Assembly: GCA_008632985.1 (NCBI GenBank)
Contig: QPGO01000383.1
Coordinates: 1 to 35,359 of the forward strand
Origin: Psammoneis japonica
Lineage: Eukaryota
Length of the DNA stretch: 35,359 nucleotides
Reading direction: 5' to 3'
A model generated the notes under the pieces. It did not search any database. It had not been told where the DNA came from and was given only the letters and a program-made list of their open reading frames with translations. Shown here piece by piece: positions 6,113-34,039 of the stretch (position 1 is its first letter; each line of letters starts with the position of its first letter). A program made the translations under genes and the position numbers.

Positions 6113-6544
6113 GGTGCTCTGCCCATGGAGTGTGTTGTGTGTCTCGTGGGAATGGTTCGCAACTGCTACACACGACCTACCGTTTGTGTAGAAATTGGTA
6201 CAAATTCTACGACGAAAGCCTGGGCTTGACACCTCGAGACCGTAGATGTACGAAGGGTCACGTATTGTGACGTCATTGGCGAATCTGGTTGGACAAAAGC
6301 ACATTATTGCCCTGTGGTTTTGTATCAGGTCATACGTAGAAATCATGTAACGCTTCTTTACCCGTTGTCGAATCTGTGAAGCAGGATCACTGCTGCTGGC
6401 TGTCGGACAGGACTGACAGAAGGACTGACTGAATGACGAGTGGATAGATATAGATCCCGCGCCGCGGAGCGAGAGGTCGAGGCGAGAGCGGGCGGCGCAT
6501 GCAGTGGAATCTCTGGCACCTTGAGGCAATTCCCGAATTTCTGC

Positions 6545-14286: not shown

Positions 14287-15490
14287 AATGAAGTCTCCCG
14301 CGATGCTTGCCGCAACCTCCTATCTCGCCTCCACCAAGGCCCTCCATCTGCTTTTTCCTTTCTTTGATCTTGTGTGTCAAAGTTCCAACAACTCTGCTGG
14401 TGTCATCACCTCGACTCATCCACCTGGGACTCTTTCGTCCAAGAAGAAGAAGGCCTCGCCAAATGTTGCCCTCTCGGTCCCGTCTTTGCCAGCCCAGCCC
14501 TCTCTCTCTCTCTCTTTCTCTCTTGTTCTTTTGTCTGCTTAGCCAAGAACTCCTTCAGCATCTCCCTGGCTGCTCTTGCATTGACGATGCACACGTCTTT
14601 TTTCCTCGCCACTCCACTCTCTCCCATGGTTCCTGGAACGCTTTTCTGCCCTTGTTGGTGCTCCCTGCAGCATCACCCTCAAGCTCCACAAAACCAAGAT
14701 TCTCACCTCCATCACTGGCACCAGTCCCATCCCCTCTCTCTCTCACTCTCAAGCTGGCCCTCTCTGTGCTGCTCTTTTGCATCTCAACCCTTTGAACACC
14801 AACCCTCCCTGCAGTCCTGAGCTCACCTCTGGTGTCCTCTTCCTTGGTCAGCCCCTTGGCTCCCATGAGTTTGCCAACTCCTTCCTCTTCACTGCCTCAT
14901 CCACTCTCTCTGACAAAGTTGGCAAGCTCCTCACCTGCCTTCACAACACAAACAAACCCAAGCCCAACTTTTCAAACACTGTTTCACGCCCTCCTCCGCT
15001 CACCTTCTTGGTGCTGATTTCTGCCATGACTTCAAACCTGACAACCCCCCCTGATCCCTTCCTTTGGACATCTTCCTTCCAAGATTCTCTTTTGACTGCC
15101 ACCCATTGGTTCCTTTGCTGTGTCACCTCCCATGCTGACACTCTCCCAGATCATTCCCTTGCCATCGCCTTTCTTCCAGCTTCTCTCAGCGGCTCTGGTG
15201 TTTGGGACCCAACAGCTGCTGCCATTTCTTCCTTTCTTGTTGCTCTCCTCCATTCCTTCCAATTTGCCTTCCATGGAGTTCAGCTGCTGTTCAGAGATGC
15301 CATTGCTCTCCCTTGCTGCTTCAGGCTGTCCATGTCCTCTTGGAACAACCCCAGCTTGACCCTTTGCCTCTCCACACATGATCTTCTGCCACTGTGCCCC
15401 TGCTCTTGCCTCTGCATCCACCCTTTCATTTTGCAGCACACTGAGCATCACAGCCATGGTGCTTTTCACAGCTTCTTTGGGTCTGCTTAA
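14287..15490 (+). mobile_element. 5'-truncated, degenerate non-LTR retrotransposon (RT domain; CRE-like by motif)
   Basis: RT motifs in order across frames: NEVSR, FPFFDL, EEG..CPLGP (QGxPL-like), CIDD at 14577-14588 (=YIDD), KTKILTS, FLGQPLGS, LP...SGSGVWDP (LPxxxGGLG-like). Confidence 0.75.
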
Positions 15491-18400
15491 AATGATGAAA
15501 AGTCACAGGCAGGGAGCAACAACTGCAAATTGTCAGTGAACCTAGTGGCGCGTGCAATTTGGTCACACCATGTGCAGATGGCAGGTCAGACCTCCTTTTT
15601 TTTGACAGCCAAGTGGATCTCTCTGAAGTCTGCTTCTCTTGCACTTTCTCATTGGCGCACATGTCATCCATTGTTGCCAGTTTCCAGGGAGGTTCATGTC
15701 AATTGCTGACTTGACTGTCCCTGCTTTGACAGGTTTTGGCCCCCTTGTGTTGCACCATGCTTTCTGCACTGTAAACCCCATTTTGTTTTGTTTGGTTTGT
15801 GATCTGATCAAGTGCACCTCTGACCTGCTCTGACCCTGCAAGGTTTTGTTGCCAGAGGAACTTCTGCTTGTGCAAGAACATCTTTTTTGTGCACCTCTCC
15901 CATGGTGACTCCTCCAAGAGGAAAGTCCATCATTGACACCCTTGCTTTCATCAAGGCTGCACTCCAGAAACTTTTCCAAGTCCCTCAAGCCATTCAGCTC
16001 CTTGAAGGCATTTGCAGCAATGCACCAGTTTTTGATCTGGATCTGTTTCTTGATGACAACAAACACACACACAATTGAAAGATCACACTTCAGAGATTGT
16101 CTCAGGTTGCACCCACAGAAAACCCCACTTTTGCCAAGTGCAAGGGGTCCTTCTGATGTCACATCTGTCAAATCCTCACTTCAAGTGAAAGCTCCACTTG
16201 CAGTGGGATCTAAGTGACACACCAAACAACTGCATCACATCAAAAGTGCCTCCAACAAGTGGATCTTTGCTCCCCCCCATGATTCACACTGCACATCTCT
16301 GGCATCCAAGAATCTGTTCAGCCCAGGTGCAGCACCATTGGATGTGCGCAAGCAGTTTGATCAGAATGCTGCAGGTGAAATGAAGGTCCAAAGTTCACTT
16401 GCTCCATTTCATGTGGCCCCATGTCATGGCCAGACCATGTCATTCTGGCTTCTGGCTGGTGGGTTGTTGTTTGTGATGAATCTGACCCCAGGCCACAAGG
16501 CATTGCTTCATGAGCCAAAAGTGCATGTCACAACAACTCTCTGCACACCAGCATTTTTCAATGATGCCTCAACACTCCATGCACACAGCTGATTGTGAGC
16601 ACTGTGTGAGCCCCACAGTGTTTCCTTGCAGCCATGGTGGTCATTGGGGCTTTGCGGTTGCGGATGACAAGGCTGATGACCAGCCACAATGAGCGCACAA
16701 TTTGCTGTCTCTTGAACCACCCCACACAATTCACAAGCTGCTGTCATGGTCTGACACATGCTTCCAAAGATCAGCAAGCTTCATCAGATTGTTGCATCAT
16801 GCTGTGGCACCAATGGCCACAGTGCATTGGAGCAGATGCCATTTCAAGTTCATCCATCTTTTTGCAAAGAGGTGCCAGGGCCACTCAATGGTCACCCGCA
16901 GTCTGTCAACTGCTGGCTGCTTTGTGGTGTTCCAACAAGACTCTTCTTCCTTGCACTGTGAGCATGAAAAATGACTGTGTCCATCAAGAGTGCAATGTGC
17001 ACCAAGAAGTGCCCAACAAGAGCAATGCACAGTGAACATGCCTCCTCAGCAGCACATGCCTCTGCAAGTGCACCAAGAAACAGAAGATTGTTGTTGAGAC
17101 TCCTGACTCTTTCCACTTTTTTTAGCCTGGTCAGACAGTCTTGTGACCAGTGAACACACCAGCAATCATGCTCCAAGTCAGATTTGTGGACAGGAATGAA
17201 GGAACAATGAATTGTCAACACAGAGTGTGGTGGGTGACAATGCCTCAGCTGGCTGCTCCCAAAGCCCCCGGCCAAGGAGACAGCTGTCCAAAAGCCAGCT
17301 GATGCTGTTGTTCCAGCTGGGGGCACTTTTGCAGCTGGTCTTAATGCACCAAGCACTGACAATGATCATCTTTCACATCATGCACCCTTGGTGTGCAACA
17401 TCAAAATGATGCCCAACAAGGCCTCAAAGAGATCATGCCTGGTGTGCACAGGAGATTTCCTTTTTCATGGTTGACCAGCCTTCACACTGGCAACCCTTGT
17501 GTCAAAGGATTTCACATTTTTTTGTCAGTTCTTGAAACGTGAAGTGGCCATGGGAGGGGGGGGTGTCACAGCTTCAAGGTGCACAAGGATGGCTGCCAAT
17601 GGATCAAGCTGCAACAGGAATCATTCGAAAATGTCGCGTGGGTCATGACTGACATTTTGCACAAGGAAAAACACAAAATCGTGTGGAAATGCACACAATG
17701 TCATACGAGAGAGTGATTGGAGCTAATGACTTTTCGGGAACTCAATTGAAATGCCATCTGATCGACGGCATTGCGATGGCCTTCACAAAATGCCGTGGAT
17801 CAGATGGCATTTCAATTGATTTCCCGAGAAGTTGACACTCGCACACGGATGGATGGACAGACTGACAACAATTGTTTTTGGTGCTCTCCCACACAATTTC
17901 CACGTGATGACTCTCAGGACCCGAATGATTCCCATTGTGCTGCCCCACCCACCACAACCCTGCCTCTGGATTTTTGCACATCACAGTCAACTTCAGATCT
18001 CCTGCAGAGCAGTCCATTGCTTTGTTGCCAACAGACAACAGCCTGATGATCACCTTCTGCGGCAGATCTTCTTTCTCCTGAGAGTGAGTTTGCTCATGTT
18101 CTGCTGTTGCCAACATCAACACCAAGGATGTTGCTGCAACTCTGTGTGTGGGCAATGACCCTTGCACTCCCATTGACAATCAGAGAAGGGCACAGGAGCC
18201 AACAAATGTGCCCAACGACTTTTTTGAATTGGTTTGTGCAGCATTGGATCATGGCACTGGGGCTTTGCAGTGACCAGCTCAACACACATCTCTCTGAACT
18301 CACGTTTGGATGCACATGGTGGTGGCACTGCTCCCACGGCACAAAATGAGAATCTTTTCAGGACAGCACCATCAGCTTTTTGAAGGATGGACATGATGGT

Positions 18401-20660
18401 GCTCAACTGGATGCTGGTGCTGACATGGCTGCTGACCCACTGTGCAGAACCAGTGTCTGAGCACCCAGGTGTGACAAGCCATTGACTGTGGAGATTGGAG
18501 GCAAGCTGCCCAGCAAAAGAACTCCAGAAGGACAAATTCACATGGAAGCAGCGCCAGGGCCCCAGCAAAAATGTCAAGACAAAAGTCCAGAGTGTTGAGA
18601 AACTGCACAAAATCCAGCATGGAATCAGCACCGGGGATGTCACAAAAATGACACAAAATTCTGGACTTTCTTGGCATTTCTGCTGTGGACCTCACACTTC
18701 TTTTGCACAAATTTGTCATTCCAGAGTTTTCTTTTGTGGGACAGCAAGGCCACTCTGCGTGCAAGTTGCGCACATGCAACACAGCAAGACATGCAGAGCT
18801 TGAGTCAGTCCCTCTGCATTCCCTTGGCACGAGAATGGGGTTGAGCTCTCAGCACTGCATGGATCTCATGCAGCCCCCTCATGCAAGATGTGCCAATTGT
18901 GTGAGAGCCAGTCAGCTCATGACTTGTCTGCACAGAACTCTTGCAGCTTGCCATGTTGGCGGGCTCACAAGGAATCACACTTTCAGAACAGCATGCTTCC
19001 AAACAATCAGCTGCCCCAATGGGCCAGTGGACAGATGCAGGACATTGCTCACACAACAAGGTCAGTCAAATGGTGGAAGCAACCCAGTGCGCTGCTGCCA
19101 AAAAATGTTGCTGACACCAAATGCTGTGGCCAGTGGCACATCTGGAATTTGTCCTGGCTGATCCACATTGTCTTTTCACTCAGGTTCTGACAAGCACTGT
19201 TATCATGTCTGTTTTTGTCTTGAACATGCAAGCCAGAGTTTGTTCTCTGAGAGACATGTTGTTCAAGCAACTCTCTTTCTGCTGTCTGTTGTGTCAGCCT
19301 GGCACTTGGTGCTGCAGGCAACAGACAAAATTTTAAAAAAATGCTGCTCTCACATTGTGTCATTTCTTCTTCACAGAAAGCATGCATCAAATGTTCATTG
19401 GAAATGCAGCAAAATTGACAGGAACATGTGTCACTTGGTCAATGTCAGCAGCCCTGGTGAGTGCCTCTGTCAAAAGGCACATTTCCATGGGGTGTCCAGC
19501 ACAACAAACAATGTGCCATGCATGTTCAAATTCCAAGCCAGGGTGATGTGTCTTTTGTGTTTTTAGCATGGTCTGCAGTGTTCATTTTGTCCATTTGTTC
19601 CAACTCTGCAAAGTTGACTAATCTCAAACTGAGTGGTCCACAGCCCATGGGCGGTTGAGTTGTCCAATCTTGTGGAGCACATCAATTTCCTTGCATTTTG
19701 ATTTTTTGTGCTGCTGAGCTTTGTGTTGCACCCATCAAGCATTTCATCATCAAAAGTGACATCTCATGCTCAAATGAAGGTGCACACAGATGCTCTTGCT
19801 GTGCATCATGCAGGCTTTTCATCTGATGCACCATCTTGTTCAACTCAATTGGCGTGGACCAGGCTTTTTGTGATCTGCTTCCTTCTGTGCCACTTTGCAG
19901 TGCTGAGGTGGAAGCAGTCTGTGTGTGCTGGTCAAGCCACAGCAAGCTCATTGGTTTCCTTTTCATCCACACAGCACTGCACATTGACAAGATGAGAGAG
20001 TGAGTGTTGTTTCCGGCCTGCACCACCCACTCTTTGCAACTCTCTGGCCAGAGCCCCAAATCTGGGTTCCCAGGTCTGGAGCCCCAGCTTGAGGTCTGGT
20101 GCTCATGGCCTGTGCTGCAACCAATCAGAGAGCTCATCCAAGAGTGTGTCAAACACCAGAAATGGCAGAGTCTGAGAGCAACAGAGGGCAGCCAACCCAT
20201 CAATGATCAGCCTTTTTTGCACCTGGCTGGTGGCTGGAGCAACAGTTGCTGTGCACTCACTCTCATGTTGAAGTTCCAGCAAGCAAGAAAACTTCTGTGT
20301 GAAATGACATGTGCACTGCAGAATCAACACTTTGCATCGGCATGTCAGTGCTGGCTCTGGGCCATTCAAGGGCCTTTCAAGGAATGTCATGCATCTGCAC
20401 CCCAGCGTCACTTTGAGAAGCACACTGGAAAATGACCCTCCTTGGGCTGTCGAATGGAAACAAAGTGTCTTTTGTCCCAGCTCCAGGCTTGTTGAAGACC
20501 TCTTTAGAGGGTTTTTGAATCAGGGTGGGATGCTGGCAAGTGGTTTTTAACAGATGCAGATTTGAAGATCTTTCACAAATTGCACTGGGCTCCACGCACA
20601 CTGGTCTGCATGGAGAATGGGGGGATGGCTGAAACATGCCCTTGAATGAAGTCTCGGTCA
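15490..20660. mobile_element. Array of further TpA/CpG-depleted repeat relics, unclassified
   Basis: Near absence of TA and CG with TG/CA excess. Many Cys/His-rich spurious ORFs on both strands. No family motif recognised. Abrupt return to normal composition at ~20665. Confidence 0.5.
17729..17832. repeat. Inverted repeat/hairpin, 44-bp arms (41/44 match) with 16-nt spacer
   Basis: acttttcgggaactcaattgaaatgccatctgatcgacggcatt (17729-17772) versus the reverse complement of 17789-17832. Confidence 0.85.
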
Positions 20661-21037
20661 TTGGGCGATTATTTTATTGCTGTGCGTAGTGTATGTGCAT
20701 CGTAGCTAAAACAGACTCTGATAGAATTATGCTTGCTAGAGTGTCCTTTTCTACTCAAAGTATTCACCTTAATTTTTCCCAGGGGAAGACTCAGAGAAAG
20801 CAACACCACACTGTCTAATTGAGACCCCATGCGCAAAGGAGGAAACATTTGCTGTTACTCGTTTGAATGTGAACGCAATCAGAAGCAGGCTTGCCACCTT
20901 AGCATCGGAAAGACATATATGGTATGTAGCTTTGCACGATAGTAGTTTTCTTCGTTTGGAGTGGATTAATTTCAGACGAGGAATGGGTCGAATCCTGAAA
21001 CGAAGGATACGGTTATCTTCTTTGAAATGTCGTGAAA

Positions 21038-22600
21038 TCATATTTCAGTAGCGTTGTGGAAGATTCTAGCATTCACGCCCACCAACTTTAAAGCATCCCG
21101 CACTATTCGCAGAGCATCTTCTGGAAACAGAATAATGTCACCTCCTGGATACGTGGTATTCGGTCGTTCATTGTGCCAAACCATATAAGGTCCTCTCATT
21201 GCCAAGAGCGAGCCAAACCGAATCCAATTGAGATCCGGCGGTGGCGGTGGAACAAGCTGCACCGAAACCGCTCCCTTTGGCAAGTAGATGCCATTCATCA
21301 ACCCTGCCCCGTTCATACCAACCAAGACTGCGTAGTTCTGTACTGATTGAATCTGCTGCGCAACGGTGCCACGAAAGCTTACCAAGTCCACCTCTGCCGA
21401 GGGTTTGAGTTTGGAGTTTAGGTACCGGACCACTTCTCCCTCATTGATGATGCACCGTCGACGGCGCTGGTCAGCTCGGGAAATGAAAGCTATTCGTGGC
21501 TTGGTTATTAGAGGAGGCGGTTGCTCACCCAGAGCCTGGTACTTCATGTAATCAATAAACGAGTTGACATTGCGAGACACAGCTTCTGGATCCTGCGACT
21601 CGGGAAACGAGTCATGAAATGGCGGAAGATCAATGTACAGATCACGAAAGCAAATATTTTTCCTTCCGGCTGAACCATTCATTGGGAAATTCCGAATATC
21701 CAATGGTACAAGAGAATGGCGCGACAAAAGTTGTAGGCCTGAATTATGAAAGTCGCTTGCACGTAAAAACGGTTCCCGAAAGAGGCTTGTGTTCCAAACC
21801 ACGTACTTGCCCCTGTCACGCACCACCGGCATGATCAATACATTCGGTCTAATCATCCTCCTGCCTCCTCCAAAGCTTCCATATTCCAAGAGCTCACTCG
21901 TCAAGAGCTGTTTGTAGAGAGGCAAGAGCGTATCATAGTGCACATGGAAGTAATTGGACTTGTACCACCAAAACACATCGACAAGAAATGTGGGCGTGTC
22001 AATGGTGGCGTCGCATGTTGGTGCCTCGTTATCCGAGCGACGCACGGCACTTTTGTAGCCAAGAAATTGAGTTAAGATCGTTTCCGCTTGCTGTGCTTGA
22101 TCATTGCGTACGACAAACTGTATCGGCGCAATGAGATCTTGTGTGGCGTTCGCCAAGCTGGAGGGAATCGTGGCAAAGTCTCCATAGATCTGTAGCCGAT
22201 GAAGCATGACATTATTCACGTGACAGTACCCCAGAAACGTGCTGCAGGGGTCCAGTATTTTCACATCTTGTAGTTGCACTGCTTTCGTCCCCAACAAGAC
22301 TTCTGGAGGAAATCCCCGTCCCAGATACGAATCGTACTCGAGGTCCAGCTTGGATGGAATGTTCAACACCAAGCTTGTAGCAAGAAGGAAGCAACACACA
22401 AAAACTGATTTTGGCCAATAATAAACAACAGCTCGTGACATATCGACGCGAGTCGCACCATGATGAAAAGCTCGTGCCGTTTCAGCCACTGGCCTCAGGT
22501 CAGATGATGCAGTAACATTATCCGTGATACTTTCCCCACATGCTTCCTTCTCTGCATCGGAAGTTTGTTTCCGTATCCTCCCTCTTCGTTGAGAAATCAT
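21038..22600 (-). CDS. Glycosyltransferase family 61 (DUF563), POMGNT2-like, type II membrane protein
   Basis: TM SVFVCCFLLATSLVL. NYFHVHYDTLLPLY (compare POMGNT2 NLMHVFHDDLLPLF), ICF, ISR...RCIINEGE, LVGMNGAGLMNGIYLPKGAVSVQLVP. Intronless 520-aa ORF. Confidence 0.8.
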   Translation of the reverse strand: MISQRRGRIRKQTSDAEKEACGESITDNVTASSDLRPVAETARAFHHGATRVDMSRAVVYYWPKSVFVCCFLLATSLVLNIPSKLDLEYDSYLGRGFPPEVLLGTKAVQLQDVKILDPCSTFLGYCHVNNVMLHRLQIYGDFATIPSSLANATQDLIAPIQFVVRNDQAQQAETILTQFLGYKSAVRRSDNEAPTCDATIDTPTFLVDVFWWYKSNYFHVHYDTLLPLYKQLLTSELLEYGSFGGGRRMIRPNVLIMPVVRDRGKYVVWNTSLFREPFLRASDFHNSGLQLLSRHSLVPLDIRNFPMNGSAGRKNICFRDLYIDLPPFHDSFPESQDPEAVSRNVNSFIDYMKYQALGEQPPPLITKPRIAFISRADQRRRRCIINEGEVVRYLNSKLKPSAEVDLVSFRGTVAQQIQSVQNYAVLVGMNGAGLMNGIYLPKGAVSVQLVPPPPPDLNWIRFGSLLAMRGPYMVWHNERPNTTYPGGDIILFPEDALRIVRDALKLVGVNARIFHNATEI

Positions 22601-23382
22601 TTCGGTGTTTTCATCACGTCTACTCTAGCTGCAAAAACCTGTTACATATTTACAGGAGAATATACAGTATGCCTTGCTATCGGTTATCTTCGTCTTGTCG
22701 GTGTGATCGATGATGGTGAAATGAAAAGCGCCTCTCTAGTAGGAACCTACGGACGGACGTCACACGTACGGTACGGTAGTCCTTGATGGATGCTTTCAGC
22801 TTCATAATCATTCAAACTCTCTCTATCAAAGTAGCGAGTCTAACGTAGAGAGATGAAGGAGATCAATCGATGAGAGGGCATTGGGCTGAGAGGTAGTCTA
22901 GCTAATAATCATGTACTGTCTATATAAAGTCCCGCCACTCTCAGTCCACATTCTTTTTTCGGCTGCAGGCGCAGCTCATCTTTTGATTTTTGGTTGGTTT
23001 TTTTGCTTTCAGCTCATCTTATGATTTTTCTTAGCTTTTTCCTTTGATACACTCTAGGCCCTAGATGTCCGCCTCCTAAATAGTAGACCGTGATTATGGT
23101 AGAGAAAGTAAGACCACGCATGGACCCGTCTTGAGGACTTGTCCTGAATTCTGGTTGGCTTCTTTGCCTCGAAAGAAAACAGGTCAGTTCTTGGAAGGAT
23201 TCTTGTTCAATGTATACTTTAACATGTATCTTCTAACTTGATAAATACGACTTGTATGGTTCAACATGTACTCATGCAGCAATAATGTTGGATGTATCTT
23301 CTAACTTGACTCATCATGCAAGATGTATATAGATATGTATGCAAACAGCAGGGGCCTTAGCGCTAAGGGCCTTAGCAAACTT

Positions 23383-23924
23383 CTAAGGCGGGGGGATTAC
23401 ACTCTCGCAATGTCGCCCAGTGAACCCTTCCTCACACACACATTTATATCTTTGACCCTCTGAAACGCAGTGCCCTCCGTTTTTGCAAGGGTTGGGATGG
23501 CAAGGGTTTGGCGGTGGGATTTCACTCTCGCAATGTGGCCCAGTGTACCCTTCGGCACACTGGCATCTATATTGGTCACACCTTGTCTGGCATGTCCCTC
23601 CGTTATCGCAAGGATTGGGAAGGCACGGGTTACTCGGTGGGGCACCAGAGCTTTCTGAACCCGAGCACTCCGCACTCGAGCTTAGTGCACGAGCCCTGAG
23701 TTGAGGTGCCCCTTTGACGGTGCCCTAGTGGAGAAGCAAGACACAAACACCATGGTGAGCGATACAATTCTCCTCCAGATTGCAAAGTATACAAATGACA
23801 TTGACTCTGCAATGGACCAAACAAATTGCTCTCAACACAGAAAAAGACTACATACCGGTGCGCCTTCCACGACGATGGAAGCGGCCGCGACCAAGGCGAG
23901 GACAGCTAGCAGACAAAGTTTCAT
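23383..23924 (-). CDS. Small secreted protein with two EGF-like repeats (136 aa). Exons 23924-23856 and 23724-23383; not in the ORF track
   Basis: ATG at 23924, signal peptide MKLCLLAVLALVAAASIVVEG. gtatgt...ctag intron 23855-23725, phase 0. NPCLPNPCDNGGTCQTRCDQYRCQCAEGYTGPHCE and NPCHPNPCKNGGHCVSEGQRYKCVCEEGFTGRHCE. TAG at 23385-23383. Confidence 0.85.
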
Positions 23925-24034
23925 AGCTCCAATGATTCGGAAAGCCCGTTGCGTTCTTCGCTTGTTTTAGCTTAAGCTATCTGCAATATCAGAGGAAGGA
24001 TAGGAAAAGATTAGCAACATATATTCCTTGAAAA

Positions 24035-24620
24035 TCGAACGCGAGCGTTCGGTCAACGATGAGAACTCATGCACAGTTGTTGAATAACGCTTCCAGAACA
24101 TTTCATACAACGCCACATTTGCAAGAACGAAACGCGCAAGTCAGTCGCAGCCACAACGAGACGGACTCGTGGTCATTTCGAAGACATGGTGTTCAATCGC
24201 ATCGAATCCGAGCACGCGGTCAACGATGAGGACTCATGCAATCCTGTCGAATAGCGCTTCCAGAACAGTTCATCTACTAGCAACCTAAGTTTGTATGGAG
24301 AGGTCAAAAAGCCAACCGCGCAAGCACAGCGTGACGGACACAAGTCATCTCGACGCGACTACATCCCGGAGAAGCCAACCGCGCAAGCACAGCGTGACGG
24401 ACACAAGTCATCTCGACGCGACTACATCCCGGAGATAAAGCTAGTGTTCAATCGTATTGAACCCGAGCTTGTGGTTAGCAACGAGAATCCATGCAATCGT
24501 GACCAAAAAGCGCTTTCAGGAACACTTCATATCGATGTATTTTGCAAGAACAAGTCGACAAGCCAGCCGAAAGCGCAAAGCGACTGGTCTCCAGTCGACA
24601 GTAGGTGCAATCGACCGAAA
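24035..24620. repeat. Degenerate ~170-bp tandem repeat (3 units) upstream of the EGF gene, containing a perfect 63-bp tandem duplication (24309-24434)
   Basis: Core ggtcaacgatgag.actcatgca at ~24051 and ~24218, diverged at ~24473. Exact 63-mer at 24309-24371 and 24372-24434. Related units at ~27470-27740. Confidence 0.8.
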
Positions 24621-26327
24621 TGCTTGCTACAAAACGGACGCAACGCGTACACTTGCAGAGTTCCTGCTCTTTACTTTCGTACGATTCCACGGAATTCTCG
24701 AAACTGGACTCCGCAAACGACAATCACATGACCGTAGATTGCGCATGATGTTAAGAGGGCGAGTATACGAGCAGCAGAGCATGCGCTGACGACGGAGAAC
24801 CCACCTTTGCTTTGATGTGTATGAACTCGTTGAATGTACCCTTTTCGATTTCCTGCTTCTTCTTTTTATGAGAGAATGGGGGATTGATTTGCGAAGCATG
24901 ACGGTGGTTCCATCAGGTCATTTGCGAAGGGTTACAATAAGTGGCATGCGCCGTCATGTCGTCACGATGAGAACATGGTGAAATCAATCGTGTTGCGAGA
25001 AAAAATTGGCGCACAAAAGAGAACACCGACGCCACAAGCACGATCAGTTCCAGAAACATTTTGTAGCATATCAAAGCACTTATAAGCGAACAAGAGATTC
25101 TTTAACACGGGCGACGGTTACCCTCTACTAGTCACAGCACGCTCGAATTCGCATTGTAAGATCGATGGAGACGCCATGACGCCATGGCGGCGCTCTTGGA
25201 CTGCGCGCACCGCGATGACGAATGACCGATGATGCGTCCAACTCCAACTCAATTTTGCGAGAGCGCGAACTCGCCAGACCGTATCTTTTCACTACGCGGT
25301 ACCTTACAAGCTACTGTACAAGACGTCAAAAGATCCAAAGTTGGTTCGTTTGACGTCGACAATGAGCCACCAGCCGCACTGCCGGTTGTTACATGGAGAG
25401 CATGAAGCTATTTGTAATGAGTATGATGCCAAAAAGAAACGGACGACAAGATGTCTCAGAGAGGCTGAAAGGCAACGGAACATCATCTTGCGTCAAAATT
25501 TCGATCTTTGACAAACCCACTGGATCTTTGCGGGGGGGAATGCAAAAAGGTGTTGGGTCACTGGGCCACCCTCTTGTTTTGCATCAATTGTCCCGTTATT
25601 TTGAATGCTGGATCGGTTTCATCATGCTTGTTGTTTGATGCACAGTGTCTTGCACATGCACTCTGCTGTCATTCGAAATGACAACAGGCCAGGCTTGAAA
25701 CGGTCGCGCCGTGAGACCCGTGTGGATGCCCACGCTACAAAGCAAACTTGAGAACTGCTTTTGAGACATCCAGGACATTTGGTGGCAGTGACACTTGCAC
25801 AGAGAGGCTAAAGTGGATCAATTGATGGGAGAGAGCATGTTGGGACGAGAGGCAAGCCAGCTGACAATCATGTGCTGTCATGTGCAAAGTTCCGCCACTC
25901 TCAGTCCACATGCTTTTTTCGGCTGCTGTTGCAGCTCATCTTTTGATTTTTGGTTGTTTTTGTTGGCCTTTGGCTCATCTTTCAATTTTTCTTGGTTTTC
26001 TTGTTTCAGTCTGCTTGAGACATGTCTCCCAAATGGCAGACCGAGATCACGACTTCATGTGGAGAAAGTGGGACCTCGCATGGACCCGCCTTGAGGACTG
26101 TTCCCGATTTCTGGTCGGCTTTGTTGCAGCAAAAGAAAATGGGTCAATTCTTGCAAGGATTCTTCTTTAACGTGCACTTTCCATGCATCTTCTAACTTGA
26201 TCCATGTGACTTGTGTGGTTCAACATGTGCCTCATGCAGCAACAATGTTGGATGCATCTTCTAACTTGACTCATCATGCAACATGCATGTCAACATGCAT
26301 GCATGCAGCAGGCGCCTCTGCAATCTT

Positions 26328-27290
26328 TTAAAACGGGGGGATTGCACTCTCGCAAAAATGCCCAGCACAACCTTTGGCACACACACATCTCCACCTGTGA
26401 CCCCTTGACTGGCGACGCGTTCCAGCTCTAGGTGGGACCTCGCACTGCTGCACTGTGACATCAACAGTTTTTTGGATCGCCTCGCATGTCGCGCACGTGC
26501 ATTTCTGCGTGTAAAATTCTACAAAATTGTCTCATGCTCCCTGTTTTGCGAAGCCAAAGGCTTTCTATTTTCAACATTTATGAGAATGAAAATACACTGG
26601 GCATGTTCTTTAATGTCTGAAGAACACACCCGGGCAAACCATCAATGATGTGCTCCAAGTGTGAAGGAGGAGATGCGTTCGTAAAATTGCCTCTTTTTCT
26701 GTTGGCGATCATTCACATTTTCATTGCAGGATAAATTTGCTACGGAGCTCGCACGTGGAATTCTATGGGCCCAATGTCACGCGGAGTCCCACCTGGGACT
26801 GGAACCCGTCTGGCATGTCCCTCCGTTCTTGCAAGGGTTGGGACGGCACAGGCCAGTTGCAGGGGACTTCACTCTCGCAATGTCATCCAGTGTGACCGTC
26901 GGCACACTGACATCTGCACCTGCCACCCCTTGATGCGCAACTCCCTCCATTCTGGCAAGGGTTGGGATTGCACGGGTTGGTCGCAGGGACTTCACTCTCG
27001 CAATGTCGTCCAGTGCAACCGTCGGCACACTGACATCTACACCTGTCACCCCTTGATGCGCAACTCCCTCCGTTCTGGCAAGGGTTGGGATCGCACGGGT
27101 TAGTCGCAGGGACTTCACTCTTGCAATGTCGTCCAGTGCAACTGTTGGCACACTGACATCTGTGCCTGTCACCCCTTGACACGCAACTCCCTCCATTCTG
27201 GCAAGGGTTGGGATCGCATGGGTTGGTGCCTTCCATGATGGTGGAAGCGCCCGCGACAAAGGCAAGGACATTTGGCAGACAAAGTTTCGT
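26328..27290 (-). pseudogene. Pseudogene paralog of the secreted EGF protein, four 40-aa EGF repeats
   Basis: ACG in place of ATG. Signal-peptide remnant KLCLPNVLAFVAGAS. Three 120-bp NPCxPNPCQNGGSC repeats plus a fourth split by an insertion. In-frame TGA at 26883-26885, 1-nt frameshift at ~26862, conserved Tyr replaced by Cys/His. Confidence 0.85.
26414..26810. mobile_element. 397-bp MITE-like non-autonomous DNA transposon, 25-bp TIRs, 4-bp TSD (TGGC)
   Basis: TIRs gacgcgttccagctctaggtgggac and revcomp gacgggttccagtcccaggtgggac (21/25). TGGC at 26410-26413 and 26811-26814. Removing the element plus one TSD restores NGGTCQSRGHRWRCVC in frame. Confidence 0.85.
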
Positions 27291-27759
27291 TGTTCGGAAA
27301 ACCGATTGTGCTCTCTTGCATTCTTTGCTTGCTTCAGTTCAAGTTCTCTGCAATGTCAAAGAAAGGACAGGCAAAGCGGTTGGCAACACACATTCTTTAA
27401 ACACGAGTCTAGAGAGGAGTCAATGAGGAAAGGCCCACAAGGAAGTGCCACGGCTCATGATCCACTCGGATGTTCAATTGCATCAAAGTCAAGCATGCGG
27501 TCAGCTGTGAGAACTCATGCAATCGTTTTGAACAGCGCTTCTAGCAGCAGCAGATCAGCTCACACAACGCCATGTGTGTTCAAGAACAGAACGGACAAGT
27601 CGCTTCACAAGCACAATGGGACAGACACGCTGTTATCTTGATGACCAAATGACAGTGTTCAATTGCACCGAACCTGATCAACGACAAGAACTCACACAAT
27701 GATTGTGATTTTGATGTTGCACTCATTGAAAGCGCTTCTTTCAATTTCTGGTTTCTTCC

Positions 27760-30700
27760 ATCCTGTGAGAAAATGGGACAGTGCCTGACACCCAAAGAAC
27801 AATCACTTGACACCACCTGTCAATTTCCTGTTTCTTTTTCTTTTTTTTGTGGCACCCTGACACCCGAAGAACACGACCTGTGTCTTGCAAGGCTGCAGCA
27901 TGTGCCCAATGTACAGCAGGGCAGGTTGTGAGTTGTGAGCTGAACAGCCTGCGATGGTCATGGTGGGCCGTGCAGGTCAGTGAGCTGTCAACGTCGCTGA
28001 TGACATTGATGCAACATCTCAATCTCCGGGTCACCCTTGAGCAAGCTCCATCTGACCCTGCACTCTCACTGCGAATGAAGCCAAACCAATGAAGAAACAT
28101 CTTTGTAAAGCCTCCAGAGCATCCAGGGTGTGACCACAATTTGTGTCAGCCAAAAGAGAAAAAAACACAACGAATGATGCACAACAAACCTTCAAAAAAA
28201 GTGGGCTCTCCCAAGGGGTTTGGTGAGCAGGTCTGTCCAACTGCAGCTGGAGTCAAGTTTTGAAACTCCAGCTCTTGCAGCCAGCACACTTTGTGTTTTG
28301 AGCCATGAAAGTGCACCCACCCATTTGGCTGGAGCTCATCATGCCCCAGCTCTCTCTTGCTTCTGGCTGGTTTGGTGGTGCTTGTGAGGCGGCCAGTGCA
28401 AAACATCCGTCATTGTTGTCTTCATGTGCTGCAGACAGCAGAAACTAATTTGGCAATGGACAAGCCTCCAAAAGGAGCCAGACTTGGTGTGCACAAATGT
28501 CTGCTGGCTTGAGCCAAGTTTTTGCAAGCAGATGTTGAAAGATGAGGTGAGAAGTGTCCGTGCAAGATCAGTGCACTGGACAGGGCCAACCACTCAGAAT
28601 GAGTGGCACGCCATTGTCTCTCATCCCAAAAAAGGATCAAACAATGTGGTTTGTCAACAATTTTCACACAAGCCAAATGAGAAGATGCAAAGTGGTTGCC
28701 TTGCCCCTTGTTCCACCCCGCAGACTCAGGACACATGCTCATAAAATTTGAGGGTTTTCAGTGGGCAATGTTGCTCAGCCTGAGTGTGAGCTGCCAGCTG
28801 CCACCACCACATGAAGCTTGGTGCTGCATTGCAAAAGCTTTGCACTTTAATTTTGGCAATGTGGACAAATTGTGAGATGCAATGCCTGCCAACGGGCTTG
28901 CTCAACTTGTCACAGAGGACATTTTTTAGGAGAAGATGTCTGGCTCATCTCAGGAGTTGTGTTTTGTGCACATGCACAAAGTCACTTGAGGTGCACTGGA
29001 CAATCATCTTGAGAAGGCAGATGCACCATGCTTGAGAAGCTGGAAGATGCTGAGCTCAAGGTCAGCACCTTAAAGCAGCTGTTCTGCCCAACACACTTGA
29101 AGCATGATCTCAGGCATGGGGTCACTCATGACAGCACCCAACACTTGAGGGAAAAGAGTGAGGCCACACAGCACATTGGTGAGCTGCTGCTGAGATGTGT
29201 GGTTGCACACATGGGGAGACGTTTCAGTGCCCCTTGCAAAACTTGCAGATGGGGCCTCCAAGCAGGAGCAGAAGACTTCCATTGAAAGAAAAGCTCTCCC
29301 AACCATCAAGTGAGTGACATCAGAAGACACACTTCTTGCACATCCAGGTTTTAACAAACCATTTGAAATTTGCACACTGATGCACCTCAATGTCAACTCA
29401 GAGCAGCAGCATTTCAAGACAACAAACCTGTCACATTTTGCAGCAGAAAGCTTGTTGGTGGTGCTCAACTCAAACACACAACAATGCAATGAGAGCTGCT
29501 CACAATTTCTGAGCCTCTAAAAAATTCACATCTGGGCTGTTCTCCTTGGTCATCATGTTGTTGCTCCACACACTGATCACCAAAGCCTTGCGTGCAGCAC
29601 AAAGCATTCAATGCCAAGCACACCACACACCACTGGCACTTGACATGCAAAAAATGCAGCCCCAAGTTGGTCAGTCATCTCAACTTTGAACCATCTTTGG
29701 ACTTTGGGTGCAGCACAACAACTGCACAAACACTGCCTAAAGTGCATCATTCTCTGCACAAAAGGCCTTCATGAACAAAGTGAAAAAATTGTGATGATTC
29801 CACCAGTTTGAACAAAAGCAGCAAGAGAATGAGTGCCTGTGTTGCACAACATTTGAACTTCACACAACTGCTCTGCATGATCACTCCATGTTCTGTGGGG
29901 GAGAGAAATGTCAAACAGACAGAGTTGGCTCATTGTCGGAACAAAATTTGTGCTTCAGAGTCATTGCAGAGGCAACTGACTGAGTCGCACCATGTGCAAT
30001 TGTGTTGTGCACAGGAGAGGCATGCACAGAAACTGCCATTGCCCAGCATTTCCACCACTGACACAGCACAAGAGCTGTGGTGCACTCTGCATGCTCCAAA
30101 TGCAACTCATGTCAGAGGACAAAAAGATGCAATGTCACAGATGTGGAAAGCACCCAGAAAAAGTGGCAGAAATTGTCCCTTGGGAGACCATTTTTGCATG
30201 GAAATGATTGGAGAAAGTGCACCAGTCAAAAGCACAAAAAGAAGATTTGCACATTTGTGGGCAGCAGCTGTGGTTGATCCAGAGCAACTCTGGACAGTTC
30301 AAAATCACCCAGCTGGCTGCCAAACATGCTGGCATTGCAGCAAATGTCATCATCAAGCAAACTTGGCCATGCAGATGTCCATGGCAAAGAATGATCATCT
30401 TCAATCAAGGAACTGAGCAAATGTCCCAATTTAGACAAATGGCTTCAGAACACTGTGGCCTCCAAAAGAAATCCACAAGCAAATGAAATCCACAGAGGTG
30501 GGTGCCACAGTGGAACATGCACGTCAGACAATTGGGAGTGTGATGCAGTCGTTCTCAGCTTGAGACATTCTTGGCTCAAATGAAAACAACATGCAGAGTG
30601 GCACACTCTCCACAGTTCTTGCATTTGCCAAGCAAACTGAGGCTTGCTCATGCCGCCACATGTGCAAGCCCAATGCAAAACTGGTGCACAGCAGCAGAGA

Positions 30701-30960
30701 TGTGTTGTTGAAAACAACATGCATCCAGCCAAGGCCCAAGTGGAAGCACACACAGGAGGACAGAAAGCTTGAGCTCATCTGTGTGAATGACAAACAAAAA
30801 AATGACAAGAGATGAGACTGCCAATGTGCCACAGGGCAGTTGGCACTCATCAAATAAGAACAAAAACCTAAATGTGGGACTGGCTGGACAGTGGCCAGAC
30901 ATGGCATGTGGCCACCCTCTCGTTTTACCCAGAATCATCCTGCCATTTTGAGTGCCAGAT
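27760..30960 (+). mobile_element. Degenerate Ty3/Gypsy LTR retrotransposon pol region (RT-RNase H-integrase); LTRs not identified
   Basis: LKDEV, IPKKDQT..F, EGFQWA, QKLCTLI, LEKLEDA.LKV (RT). LAHPGFNKPFEI (RNase H). TW.CRCPW...I.F.QGTE and NPQ (integrase). Domain order RT-RH-IN. TA/CG depleted. Confidence 0.8.
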
Positions 30961-31234
30961 GGGTGTCATCACGGTTCTTTGTTCGCCGTGTCGCGCACAT
31001 GTGCTCTGCGGCTGTCATTCTAAATTACAGTTCAGGCTTCACACGGTCGCACCGGTTTGGTGGTAGCACCACTGCGCGGACAGAGTGGCCAAAGTAGATC
31101 AATCAACAGGAGAGACGGCATTGGGACGTGTTCTTCGCCTCTCAATGCCACCCATGGAGCACTGACCCACCACGTAAAATTCTTTCCTCAGGACTCTACT
31201 AGCTGATGTTCTTATTCTACCTTTAACTAAACTT

Positions 31235-32881
31235 CTAAACAAAATCATAATGCTCTCGAAATCCATCTAAATCACGTGATGCCGCCAAGGGGATTAGATC
31301 CCACCTCTCACAACACGACAAGGCAATCCGTAGATAACTCCAACAATGCGTTGCCGACGGGTTGAGACTGAGTGTCTGTAAATAGCATCTCGCCGCATCC
31401 TCGTAATTGGACAGATTGGAGTGAGAAATGGCCATGTTAAGCCAGGCACGAGCGTAGCGTGGTTTCAGTTGTAATGCGTCGTGGTATGCATGAAGCGCAT
31501 CGTTGGATTGATTACTATTGGCTAATGTTGCTCCAAGCTTGTTGTGTAGCTGATAATTGTCCGGATGCGTCTCGAGAGCCTTGCGAAAGCAATCAATCGC
31601 CTTGTCGTAGTTTCGACTGACATTGTACACGACACCCAAGGCTTCTCGGACATCGGCAGCGGTAGTGTCGTCGCCTGTGCAACACGTCAAAGCGTGCTGC
31701 AGCAGGCGTTGGACTTTGTCTTGGGGGCTTTCATTTTCAATAGACGCCAGTTCCATTCCAGCGAATTGAGGATTGTGCGTAATGTACTTTTGCAAATTAT
31801 CCAATGCGCGTTCATGGTTCAATTCATTAACATACGAAACGCCCAATGCCAAGAGTGCTTGTGTTGAATATGGATCTCGATCAACAGCGTTTTCCAGAGC
31901 AGCAATCGCCCTGGAATCCTCGTCGTTTTCGGCATGGCACTTTCCTAGCATGAGCCACGCGGTAGCATTGTCCTCGTCAACATGACGGAGCTCGGTCTCA
32001 AAACTAGCAACAGCCTTTCGGGTGAAGCCCTCTTCAAACTCCTTCATACCACGAGCCATCCAATCAATCGATTCATCCGAGGGATGCTCTCGTGATTCTT
32101 CGCTAAATTCATACGCTTCTCGTTCCTGCTCAAGTACGTCTTGAGCTTGTGGTGACGTCCACAAATTGGCAGCTTCATGATTCGCATCGGCGTATTCTTG
32201 CTTGTACTCTGCCTCCGCTTCTGCCCATGCCTTGGCCAATTCTTCAATTGTGGCACCCTGTACAATTCCTTCGTGTCCTACCGTGGCGACATCCTCCTCC
32301 TCCTCCAATATTCCCTCGTGCCAATTATCAATCGTGACGTTTTCTGCGTGTTCCTCGACTTGTTCCTGTACAGCATCCTGTACTGTTTCTTGTTGTTGTA
32401 GCTCTGTTTGTCTAGCTTGCAGTTGTTGCTGATGCTGATGTAAGTGATGCTGTTGTTGAATCATCATTTGCTGCTGAATGTGTTGTTGCATTCGCATATG
32501 TTGATGATGCATTTGCATCTGTTGCTGAGGATGCATGTGCATCTGATGAGCATGATGCTGCATCATCATGGGTCCTGCCGTGTTATGTTGTTGGTGGTGA
32601 ATTGCAGGACGACTACTCTCATTCCACGCTCGATTCATCATTGTCGGATTCCTCTGTGTTGTATTAGTAGCAGGTGGCGGTACAGCCATGGTAGTACTTG
32701 GCATGGCCAGAGCCGTCGGTGGTGCATGAGGCATAGCGACCGCGTTGCTCATGCTGGCATGTCCCAAAAAGGAGGCCATGCTTTTCATGACGGAATCATT
32801 GTTGTTGCTTCCTACCGTTTGTCCAATGACGGCAGCTGCCGCACGGTCGATGGTGGAGCCGGCAGCTCCACAGTCGGCCAT
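31235..32881 (-). CDS. PEX5: Peroxisomal targeting signal 1 receptor (TPR protein)
   Basis: N-terminal Cys (MADCG). TPRs AWLMLGKCHAENDED..AI.AL, ALLALGVSYVNE, NKLGATLANSNQS..A...Y..AL.LKPRY.RA..N.AIS..NL. First plausible ATG at 32881. Confidence 0.93.
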   Translation of the reverse strand: MADCGAAGSTIDRAAAAVIGQTVGSNNNDSVMKSMASFLGHASMSNAVAMPHAPPTALAMPSTTMAVPPPATNTTQRNPTMMNRAWNESSRPAIHHQQHNTAGPMMMQHHAHQMHMHPQQQMQMHHQHMRMQQHIQQQMMIQQQHHLHQHQQQLQARQTELQQQETVQDAVQEQVEEHAENVTIDNWHEGILEEEEDVATVGHEGIVQGATIEELAKAWAEAEAEYKQEYADANHEAANLWTSPQAQDVLEQEREAYEFSEESREHPSDESIDWMARGMKEFEEGFTRKAVASFETELRHVDEDNATAWLMLGKCHAENDEDSRAIAALENAVDRDPYSTQALLALGVSYVNELNHERALDNLQKYITHNPQFAGMELASIENESPQDKVQRLLQHALTCCTGDDTTAADVREALGVVYNVSRNYDKAIDCFRKALETHPDNYQLHNKLGATLANSNQSNDALHAYHDALQLKPRYARAWLNMAISHSNLSNYEDAARCYLQTLSLNPSATHCWSYLRIALSCCERWDLIPLAASRDLDGFREHYDFV

Positions 32882-33376
32882 GGTCTCTGAAAATAAAAAA
32901 AATTGTGACACATTTTTCGTGACGCGACGAGCGACGAGGGCAGACTCTGAATAAATCGCGCGATGATCACGCGACACGATTACTGTAGTGCAAGCACAAA
33001 GTTCTAAGATTGATCGGCAGCAACAACAAAGCTCACAGCTCGTTCTCGTCGTCTCGTTCTTCAGGAGGCATGCTAGAATGGCTAATTGCAGCCAATGTTT
33101 TCGTACTTTCACTGAAAGAACCCAAGTGTGGATTATCTTGCTGTTTCATTTAGAATAGTCCAACCTCTAAGCCGACTCTACAGTCTTTCTAATACCAGTA
33201 CAGAGGCCACCACGAAGCTAAAAAAATCCCGAAGCATTCGTTCCTTGTCTCATTGTAGTAAAATGAAAAGAGCAACCTCTAAAACATCTGAATCGTCATG
33301 ATGACCTTATTTTGAAGGCAAAACAGTTATACTCTAGAGAATACTCTCGATTTTAAACAACGAAATATTCAATTCC

Positions 33377-34039
33377 TTATGATTCAAAAAGCCCTTCTTC
33401 ATCAAACTCCCACTCATCGTCGTCATCCACTTTATCAAAATCAATTCCCTTTACCATTCCTTCCGGTACATCCACACTTTCACGTTTGTATCCCGACGCC
33501 ACCTTGTCAATTAAATACATGACATCGACCGCCGCCGACACGTCGGCTTGTGCAAAGGACAAGTTTGGAATCGTCTTCATGTGACTCAACCGTTGTGCCA
33601 AGGTGTGTCGAATCGGTTTGGAGCTTCGAACCAACCACGAGTAGGCTCGGCGCTTGTCCACGGCATCATCTCCCCGAATGGAAACCGTCACTCGTGCTTG
33701 ACGGAGATCGGGAGAAACATTGACGTGCACGACACTAATGCATTGTCGTACGTCCGAATCGAGATAATCCACGTCACGGCCTTTAATGTTGCCACTGTGA
33801 ATAATTTGAGATAATTCGGTACCAACCAGTCGACCGACACGTTCTTGACGTTTGGAACGTTCGGCTCCGGTGGATCTGGAAGAAGAAGAAGAAGAGTAAT
33901 ATGACATGCTGAGAGTTGATGTATGTTGTCTTGGTTGTGTTGGAATTGGTGCTTGGAACGAGTGAACCGCAAGGCTATTTATGAAAATCACCGCCAGCAA
34001 TATGAATCCATAACAAACAGTAGCTTTCAAACTTCTCAT
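33377..34039 (-). CDS. rbfA: Ribosome-binding factor A, plastid-targeted
   Basis: RQERVGRLV..ELSQII, ISVVHVNVSPDLRQARV.VS, IRHTLAQRL.HMK..PNLSF. Signal peptide followed by S-FQAP (ASAFAP-like). ATG at 34039. Confidence 0.9.
   Translation of the reverse strand: MRSLKATVCYGFILLAVIFINSLAVHSFQAPIPTQPRQHTSTLSMSYYSSSSSSRSTGAERSKRQERVGRLVGTELSQIIHSGNIKGRDVDYLDSDVRQCISVVHVNVSPDLRQARVTVSIRGDDAVDKRRAYSWLVRSSKPIRHTLAQRLSHMKTIPNLSFAQADVSAAVDVMYLIDKVASGYKRESVDVPEGMVKGIDFDKVDDDDEWEFDEEGLFES

Follow-up and report, generated by a model that had tools for sequence, protein, structure and literature searches.

Loss of TpA and CpG in non-genic blocks of a Psammoneis japonica contig and decay of an EGF gene duplicate within one of them

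Results

The DNA analyzed here is a stretch of 35,359 nt from the diatom Psammoneis japonica (assembly GCA_008632985.1, contig QPGO01000383.1, positions 1–35,359, forward strand), referred to below as the window. It holds an intact gene for an EGF-domain protein (copy A, 22831–24355, minus strand), a mutated duplicate of that gene (copy B, 25785–27700, minus strand), several other genes, and sharp-edged, non-genic blocks in which TpA and CpG, both self-complementary dinucleotides, have been turned by transitions into TpG and CpA. Copy B lies in such a block and has decayed, whereas copy A lies in normal DNA and has not. A preliminary description of this DNA had taken the pair as a sign of repeat-targeted hypermutation of TpA, a kind of reversed repeat-induced point mutation (RIP), and the results below bear out most of its account of the mutations but not its account of their target.

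An intact and a decayed copy of an EGF gene

A blastn search of the window against itself returned one duplicate pair, 22847–23458 and 25801–26403, with 75.9% identity over 627 columns, in agreement with the intact and mutated pair recognized earlier, and the pair stretched to about 22831–24355 and 25785–27700 when pyrimidine–purine (YR) steps were collapsed for the search. Copy A, as delimited by self-BLAST, composition, and translation, comprises the gene, its 3′-untranslated region (3′-UTR), and an upstream part, with normal TpA and CpG. The coding sequence occupies 23383–23924 on the minus strand, with the ATG at 23924–23922, an intron with GT..AG ends at 23725–23855, and the stop codon TAG at 23385–23383, and the 3′-UTR occupies 22891–23382. 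A contig from sequencing run X2 links 23723 to 23855, with CT..AC ends at a cut of +1, which equal GT..AG on the minus strand, and a second X2 contig links 23980 to 24805. The spliced frame encodes a 136-residue product with two EGF domains and a hydrophobic N terminus, which by eye resembles the signal peptide of a small secreted-type protein, and Pfam detects EGF on exon 3 with an E-value of 3.7e-18. Copy A is a working gene, and its TpA content is normal even in the intron and the 3′-UTR, with a rho TpA of 0.85–0.87 around 22501–23500. A perfect 63-bp tandem duplication (two copies, 100% identity) is found at 24309–24435, in the first intron or the upstream part of copy A, and sits within diverged repeats of about 170 bp at 24034–24530.

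Copy B, which was defined by its alignment to copy A, is a pseudogene: its ATG has become ACG, it contains an in-frame stop codon and a 402-bp insertion, and the aromatic residues of its EGF domains have been replaced by H, C, or W. Besides EGF fragments, it carries 3.3 tandem EGF units of 123 bp at 26818–27227 on the minus strand, as delimited by Tandem Repeats Finder. The left flank of copy B (25564–25847) and the right edge of the same block (30910–31128) share 72–76% identity, or 90% over 74 bp after YR collapse, a likeness that might go back to a larger ancestral duplication or to a rearrangement.

Substitutions between the two copies

The copies were compared over three alignable segments amounting to 1008 aligned bp. 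Among the 54 TpA sites of copy A, copy B has TA at 3, CG at 0, TG at 17, CA at 24, and another dinucleotide at 10, while the 47 CpG sites of copy A correspond to TA at 0, CG at 17, TG at 13, CA at 11, and another dinucleotide at 6. Changes in the reverse direction, from TG or CA in copy A to TA or CG in copy B, are seen at 5 and 9 sites, respectively, and the asymmetry is therefore 41 versus 5 for TpA (binomial p = 4e-8) and 24 versus 9 for CpG (p = 0.014). Copy A has 43 TpA in 612 bp and copy B only 5 in 603 bp. The fraction of positions with a transition between the copies, counted per strand, is 0.39 in TpA and 0.29 in CpG, against 0.09–0.15 in the six other contexts (0.10 in TpC), and the difference between TpA and the non-CpG contexts is significant by Fisher's test (p = 8e-11). 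When adenines are sorted by the preceding base, 29 of 76 have changed after T, in contrast with 5 of 97 after A, 7 of 81 after G, and 10 of 81 after C.

These counts uphold much of the preliminary description. Between 22900–23345 and 25860–26310, where it had counted roughly 20 changes of TA into TG or CA, the actual number is 25: the 34 TpA of copy A there have become TpG at 13 sites and CpA at 12, remain TpA at 2, and are otherwise changed or gapped at 7, and copy B holds 3 TpA in all within 25860–26310. All five pairs of words that it quoted can be read in the sequence, the tyrosine codon TAT of both EGF units of copy A (A1 and A2) is found as CAC, TGT, and TGC in the tandem units B1, B2, and B3 of copy B, and the aromatic position of the GYTG/GFTG motif is occupied by C, C, and H in the B units. 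Its claim of A>G change at TpA on both strands, opposite to RIP, agrees with the ratio of 41 to 5, which is far above background, and the specificity for TpA that this claim implies agrees with the adenine counts, in which the excess is confined to adenines after T. A site that reads GTG in one unit and GCA in others does exist (column 47), although GCG is as possible an ancestor as the GTA that had been proposed.

Comparison among the tandem units of copy B gives a finer view of the same process. After YR collapse they are 97.6% identical, up from 89.9%; all 11 differences between B1 and B2 fall at YR steps, and the comparisons of B3 with B1 and with B2 bring in only a single further substitution and, where the unit ends, a difference of 4 bases. 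The TATA found in both A units reads CACA in B1, TGTA in B2, and TGCA in B3. At four TpA sites for which A1, A2, or both serve as outgroup, 10 of the 12 copies in the B units have changed (6 to CA and 4 to TG), and 8 of the 24 CpG copies with an outgroup have done so. By these counts, TpA has decayed about 3–4 times as fast as CpG, the lower figure coming from the sites kept between copies A and B (3/54 versus 17/47) and the higher from those kept in the B units (2/12 versus 16/24). Relative to other substitutions, the decay of TpA is faster by roughly two orders of magnitude, because other changes are near-absent between the B units.

Three independent lines, namely, the B units with the A units as outgroup, the aromatic positions of the EGF domain, and dinucleotide composition, show that TA and CG are the ancestral state. 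Both aromatic positions are Y or F in the two domains of copy A and Y, F, or W in the aligned repeats of Notch1 and DLL1, whereas the B units have H, C, or W there.

Blocks depleted of TpA and CpG

Four depleted blocks were delimited in the window. The block at 1–540 has 0 TpA and 22 CpG, CpG being only partly reduced there; that at 6500–8820, between the kinase and O-FucT genes, has 5 TpA and 10 CpG against 527 TpG plus CpA; the largest, at 14540–20500, has 13 TpA and 50 CpG, a young insertion included; and the block at 25440–30850, which contains copy B, has lost nearly all TpA throughout, while its CpG is about half lost in 25440–27700 (rho 0.49–0.67) and nearly gone in 27700–30850. The blocks occupy intergenic spaces, and their edges are sharp within about 150 bp. 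With two young insertions left out, the blocks total 13,617 bp, or 38.5% of the window, and the remaining 21,126 bp were taken as normal DNA. TpA density is 2.9/kb in the blocks versus 38.5/kb in normal DNA, and CpG density is 11.8/kb versus 57.6/kb. The corresponding pooled rho values are 0.05 versus 0.57 for TpA, 0.21 versus 1.00 for CpG, and 1.80 versus 1.22 for TpG/CpA, and GC content is unchanged (0.49 versus 0.48). The TpA/ApT ratio in the blocks is 0.0–0.1, and TG and CA are roughly equal in number, that is, without strand bias. Among overlapping 500-bp windows, 53 of 140 have a rho TpA below 0.2 and 41 of 140 are low in both TpA and CpG. The signature that had been assigned to about half of the window is present, but its extent is smaller, at 38.5% by block limits and 53 of the 140 500-bp windows.

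In 6500–8820, 14540–20500, and 27700–30850, all six reading frames contain open stretches of 100–300 codons with many C, H, W, and Q residues because TAA and TAG are gone, and gene finders would probably over-call genes in such DNA. Of 142 stop-to-stop open reading frames (ORFs) from the blocks (35 + 107) that were compared with Pfam, none scored above the curated cut-off except for EGF in copy B; the weak matches below the cut-off were to domains of unknown function, LprI, Gallidermin, and Chromo_shadow. In the YR-collapsed self-BLAST of the window, the other blocks had no partner and long terminal repeats were not found, and tblastn with 194 block ORFs gave no match in 80 metagenome loci of diatoms and protists (about 470 kb).

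Sequence context of TpA loss

The 40 TpA sites that remain in the blocks are distributed over YTAR, YTAY, RTAR, and RTAY as 29, 7, 3, and 1, whereas among the 813 TpA sites of normal DNA YTAR accounts for 16% and RTAY for 32%, and the two distributions differ with p = 2e-14. Relative to the density in normal DNA, survival in the blocks is 0.354 for YTAR, 0.051 for YTAY, 0.022 for RTAR, and 0.006 for RTAY. A model in which the strands are hit independently, with rates obtained from RTAY and YTAR (2.56 for TAY and 0.52 for TAR), predicts a survival of 0.046 for the mixed classes, near the observed 0.051 and 0.022. In the deep blocks, TpA survival outside YTAR is 0.7–2.7%, and CpG survival is 8–16% with little effect of context. 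The alignment of copies A and B follows the same pattern: all three retained TpA are CTAA, the other three contexts retain 0 of 38, and RTAR sites have gone to CA at 9 sites and to TG at 3, as the independent-strand model predicts. The context of TpA loss therefore fits independent one-strand hits at 5′-TAY-3′ (A>G), which in duplex DNA would be indistinguishable from hits at 5′-RTA-3′ (T>C).

Evidence from sequencing runs

Run X1 derives from one sample, may be the assembly's own and hence not independent, and has no library type on record. Its contigs covering 14113–14941, 14919–16752, and 18273–20915 contain 0 other letters compared with the window, with one gap each in the first two. Those of the listed contigs that lie in blocks account for about 5.3 kb, in two of the four, and the sequence is therefore not a product of base calling. 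The depth of these contigs is 34–36, equal to that of the contig from gene DNA at 23507–24338 (34), and the parts that they cover look single copy in this test of target copy number, which draws on the contig depths of one run. Some block bins in X1 are at 2–4 times the base depth (150, 109, and 177).

Further X1 contigs, with a depth of about 55, differ from the window by about 1%, and we read them as the second allele. Among 40 of the 196 rows of differences, 17 lie between 25595 and 27559, and in 15 of these a YR step is altered by a transition, which makes 13 sites, adjacent doubles at two of them included; the remaining two rows are one non-YR transition and one transversion. At 27389–90, CA in the window corresponds to TG in the X1 contig and to TA in copy A. 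If the two X1 forms are alleles, one ancestral TpA has been lost independently in each, with different outcomes, and the process would therefore be recent or still running. Over 21491–27559, the same 40 of 196 rows include 8 sites, some of them inside a GT61 gene, at which the window has TpA and X1 has TpG or CpA, and never the reverse; this one-way bias may be chance among selected rows or may reflect alleles mutated to different extents.

Two insertions inside the blocks stand apart from their surroundings. One, at 26409–26810 within copy B, is a high-copy element resembling a miniature inverted-repeat transposable element (MITE), with terminal inverted repeats of about 25 bp (26414–26438 and 26786–26810) and a normal composition (11 TpA and 21 CpG); X1 shows a joint 26408>26810 in a contig without the insertion, loose ends at 26414, and a bin depth of about 40,000. 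The other, at 17635–17848, is a palindromic high-copy insertion with 2 TpA and 12 CpG and an inverted repeat at 17729–17832 with 104-bp arms; X1 shows a joint 17634>17849 in a contig without the insertion and a bin depth of 4190. Depth elsewhere is 35–60, against the summed values of about 40,000 and 4,190 at the two insertions. The insertion-free contigs probably represent the other allele. Both elements are young insertions, which look like members of currently active MITE-like families and are uninformative on immunity to the mutation process.

Run X2, recorded as "DNA?", covers 13 of 30 bins, in normal-composition and mostly genic DNA (20640–25287 and 31264–33900), and has trace depth in two bins lying mostly inside the third block. 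Given its GT..AG-type joints, it is probably an RNA library, and its near-absence over the blocks, which is part of the DNA without cover, was not used as evidence. A third run, X3, covered no part of the window.

Other genes and related loci

The kinase domain encoded by the ORF at 3851–6529 has its best matches in homologue searches at 74–75% identity; the best named match, at 74%, is from Fragilaria crotonensis, ahead of other named diatoms at 64–69%. These matches identify the window as nuclear DNA of a pennate diatom. Other genes in the window are an AdoMetDC/spermine-synthase pair, O-FucT, two GT61 pieces, LPMO_10, a TPR protein, and RbfA. At 1090–2534 on the plus strand, a spermine/spermidine-synthase domain comes after a bacterial-type AdoMetDC domain and lies in a neighboring frame, an arrangement that we take to resemble the fused polyamine gene of diatoms; a homologue search with the AdoMetDC ORF gave 0 matches. 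The GT61 glycosyltransferase at 21038–22600 on the minus strand has only 2 detectable relatives among 5.8 billion proteins, both distant, the better being a Trichoplax protein with 33% identity. An Rfam search of the window gave 0 matches.

The 80 metagenome loci, which surround kinase orthologues in diatoms and protists and amount to 469,969 bp or 1751 windows, were scanned for the same depletions. Rho TpA was below 0.2 in 9 of the 1751, and only 1 (L043:501) was also low in CpG, compared with 41 of 140 here; a single depleted window was found, then, and no general spread, although absence from these contigs, which are often short or possibly transcripts, is weak evidence. Locus L043 is a microbial-mat contig next to a kinase orthologue (53–57% identity), in which 2.4 kb (300–2700) is poor in CpG, rich in TpG/CpA, and mildly depleted of TpA, with lower TpA, 1–2 per 300 bp, at 450–750.

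Discussion

Hypermutation of TpA has a precedent in the chlorarachniophyte Bigelowiella natans. In mutation-accumulation lines of this alga, 231 of 302 nuclear mutations fell in two integrated viral regions, a single-copy and transcriptionally silent 186-kb insert from a nucleocytoplasmic large DNA virus and a 25-kb virophage insert, and 230 of these 231 were A>G or T>C, all on TpA according to the authors (Mettrop et al., 10.64898/2026.01.13.699255). The available text of that preprint gives a rate of about 6e-7 in the viral regions versus 3.5e-10 elsewhere, describes 124 genomic clusters of windows poor in TpA and rich in CpA and TpG, proposes an ADAT2-like protein as the candidate enzyme, and mentions neither diatoms nor CpG (10.64898/2026.01.13.699255). 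Our literature search found no TpA hypermutation of this kind for diatoms, in line with the preliminary description, which knew of none; the precedent is in B. natans only.

The diatom case resembles that of B. natans in several respects. In both, A:T>G:C transitions at TpA yield TpG and CpA on the two strands; in both, discrete regions are affected, the rest of the present window being normal (2.9 versus 38.5 TpA/kb); and in both, low rho TpA with high rho CpA + TpG in clustered windows is the long-term footprint. The main target in B. natans is single copy and silent; here the contig depths of one run, 34–36 over parts of two blocks versus 34 in the gene contig, would agree with a single-copy state of those parts. 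The differences are that the present host is a diatom, that is, a stramenopile; that rho TpA reaches 0.04–0.05 here and 0.45 in B. natans; that one of the targets is a duplicate of a host EGF gene (copy B) instead of viral DNA; and that the process is known here from the end-state sequence alone, while in B. natans the raised rate was measured in mutation-accumulation lines. The preference for TAY over TAR is a feature seen here. We infer that the process behind the diatom blocks is of the same kind as the hypermutation of silent viral DNA in B. natans, more extreme but not without precedent. The best explanation of the observations as a whole is a regional, B. natans-type hypermutation of TpA in silent DNA combined with decay of CpG, to which we assign a probability of roughly 0.6.

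Under this explanation, the process would mark regions, namely, silent and probably methylated chromatin, and not duplications, and the CpG part would be ordinary deamination of 5-methylcytosine (5mC). The loss of CpG in the same blocks makes a link to methylated or silent chromatin likely, and transposable elements of diatoms are methylated by DNMT5a (PMC9998398). Like decay through 5mC deamination, the changes found here convert CpG to TpG or CpA, at 24 of the 47 CpG of copy A, and the blocks are non-genic. As the whole cause, this decay was rejected, since copy B keeps 3 of 54 TpA versus 17 of 47 CpG; it explains the CpG half only, and the loss of TpA is faster, further-reaching, and beyond its reach. 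The preliminary description had rightly excluded 5mC deamination for TpA, the reaction being unable to yield TpG or CpA from TpA.

The TpA part would most likely be enzymatic, base-specific, exerted on one strand at a time, and directed to silent chromatin. A deaminase of the TadA/ADAT2-like kind, with DNA as its substrate, might carry out this step by converting adenine to hypoxanthine. In tRNA, the A34 edited by TadA or ADAT2-3 follows U33, and a TA context is therefore native to the family, with UAC as the site of TadA itself, which matches the TAY context found here. Of the candidates put forward in the preliminary description, a TadA-like deaminase agrees best with the preference for TAY over TAR, and it is also the proposal of the B. 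natans authors; we regard a deaminase of the TadA/ADAT type as the leading guess for the TpA step, if at somewhat less than an even chance. Another of those candidates, error-prone repair by DNA polymerase eta, is disfavored. In somatic hypermutation through AID and polymerase eta (WA>WG), A:T pairs in the vicinity of deaminated cytosines undergo A>G changes, but adenines in ApA are not raised here (5/97 versus 29/76 in TpA).

One alternative, which we consider unlikely but the most probable of those weighed, is that thymine instead of adenine is attacked: a TET/JBP-like dioxygenase in silent chromatin would oxidize T in 5′-RTA-3′ and 5mC in CpG, and mispairing of the resulting 5-hydroxymethyluracil, 5-formyluracil, or 5-formylcytosine would lead to T>C in TpA steps and to C>T in CpG steps. 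Duplex data cannot separate A>G from T>C, RTA being the complement of TAY, and a single activity on 5-methylpyrimidines would explain the joint loss of TpA and CpG in the deep blocks. In addition, 5-hydroxymethyluracil is enriched at TpA in dinoflagellates, base J occurs at TpA in telomere repeats, and 5-formyluracil favors T>C. A shared oxidation is harder to reconcile with the loss of TpA where CpG is largely kept, as in 1–540 with 0 TpA and 22 CpG, and with a context dependence that is strong for TpA and slight for CpG, and the literature matches for 5-hydroxymethyluracil together with diatoms were, by title, all on dinoflagellates.

Still less probable, in our judgment, is the absence of any dedicated mutator. 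Silent, late-replicating, or mismatch-repair-poor chromatin might merely expose a polymerase or repair bias, for example through T:G mispairs at TpA or through patches of polymerase-eta-type WA>WG changes that follow 5mC deamination, with genes kept clean by repair. The blocks are non-genic and CpG-depleted, as is expected of methylated silent DNA, and mismatch-repair-deficient spectra do show C>T at CpG together with T>C. A passive bias would nevertheless have to bring TpA survival down to 0.7–2.7% outside YTAR in the deep blocks while leaving ApA, GpA, and CpA at background, confine the 11 differences between B1 and B2 to YR steps, and spare the TpA of the 3′-UTR and intron of copy A.

The reading of the preliminary description, a RIP-like defense that is triggered by duplication, detects repeats, and mutates TpA, has in our view only a small chance of being correct. 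The best-documented target, copy B, is indeed a duplicate with tandem repeats, and some block bins in X1 exceed the base depth severalfold, as noted above. In addition, some diatoms possess DNMT4 enzymes, relatives of fungal RID without an assigned function (PMC9998398). The claim of repeat targeting is nonetheless not supported. Copy B alone is mutated, and copy A keeps normal TpA, its non-coding parts included; about 5.3 kb of two blocks has the depth of the gene contig; the other blocks have no partner in the window even after YR collapse; and the main target in B. natans is described as single copy. Fungal RIP consists of C>T changes at CpA, raises TpA, lowers GC, and hits both copies of a duplication. 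The present case shares with it dense context-specific transitions, the destruction of a gene copy, and a dinucleotide footprint, but the direction is opposite (TpA/ApT of 0.0–0.1 in the blocks), only one of the two copies is hit, and GC stays the same. RIP in its fungal form was rejected on the direction of change and on the sparing of copy A, which has 43 TpA in 612 bp against 5 in 603 bp of copy B.

It is very improbable that the blocks are an artefact of a long-read assembly in which modified bases were miscalled, 5mC as T and a modified A as G. Such miscalls would produce both conversions, and X1, with no library type on record, may come from the assembly's own sample; yet over about 5.3 kb in two blocks its k-mer contigs, at normal depth, show 0 other letters, neighboring tandem units have TG and CA in place of one and the same ancestral TpA, and copy B is a pseudogene on independent grounds (lost ATG, stop codon, and insertion). 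The chance that the polarity is reversed, with copy A hit by CpA>TpA as in classical RIP and copy B unmutated, is negligible: a two-sequence alignment is symmetric by itself, but copy A is spliced and retains the aromatic EGF residues of Notch and DLL1 where copy B has H or C, its rho TpA of 0.85–0.87 compares with 0.57 in pooled normal DNA and its TpG/CpA is not depleted, and the B units differ among themselves where both A units have TA, so that with TA ancestral a RIP-like event in copy A is excluded for practical purposes.

Several points weigh against regional TpA hypermutation of the B. natans type as the best explanation. TpA loss outreaches CpG loss at 1–540, partly at 14000–14540, and also in 25440–27700, and because of this extension at 1–540 and 14000–14540 the two losses are not strictly coupled but partly independent. 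CpG is lost here in addition to TpA, whereas no CpG effect is mentioned in the available B. natans text; a shared mechanism is assumed. Methylation of the blocks is deduced from CpG loss alone, and the enzyme, the modification, and the chromatin state are putative. As for the deaminase, fungal mRNA editing of the ADAT type prefers A or G after the edited A, unlike the TAY context. The view that the process is regional and not triggered by repeats draws on one 35-kb window and the contig depths of one run, and the blocks other than that with copy B may derive from old repeats or from viral inserts that have decayed past recognition. Finally, the process is not general among the diatom and protist relatives, with both depletions in 1 of 1751 windows.

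A TpA-specific A:T>G:C hypermutation has otherwise been reported in one 2026 preprint on one chlorarachniophyte, and the diatom case would extend it to a second lineage of the stramenopile–alveolate–rhizarian group, one of great ecological weight. It shows that the process is able to reach near-complete erasure of TpA and that host-derived DNA such as copy B can be a target, foreignness not being required. Erasure of this kind has consequences for genome analysis, such as few stop codons, many spurious ORFs, pseudogenes and transposable elements that become invisible, and odd k-mer spectra. The finding makes TpA hypermutation testable in diatoms, and the strand-wise TAY context narrows the search for the enzyme, which, if it underlies the TpA loss, would be a natural A-to-G editor of DNA. 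A bolder and rather doubtful idea, offered tentatively, is that an adenine deaminase of DNA, directed to chromatin and with 5′-TAY-3′ as its motif, is an old possession common to diatoms and chlorarachniophytes. It would permanently rewrite any DNA that enters the silent compartment, host pseudogenes included, would operate beside CpG methylation but independently of it, and would still be active in the diatom lineage. If that were true, it would be a natural A-to-G editor of a double-stranded genome and would represent a second, non-fungal class of mutational genome defense.

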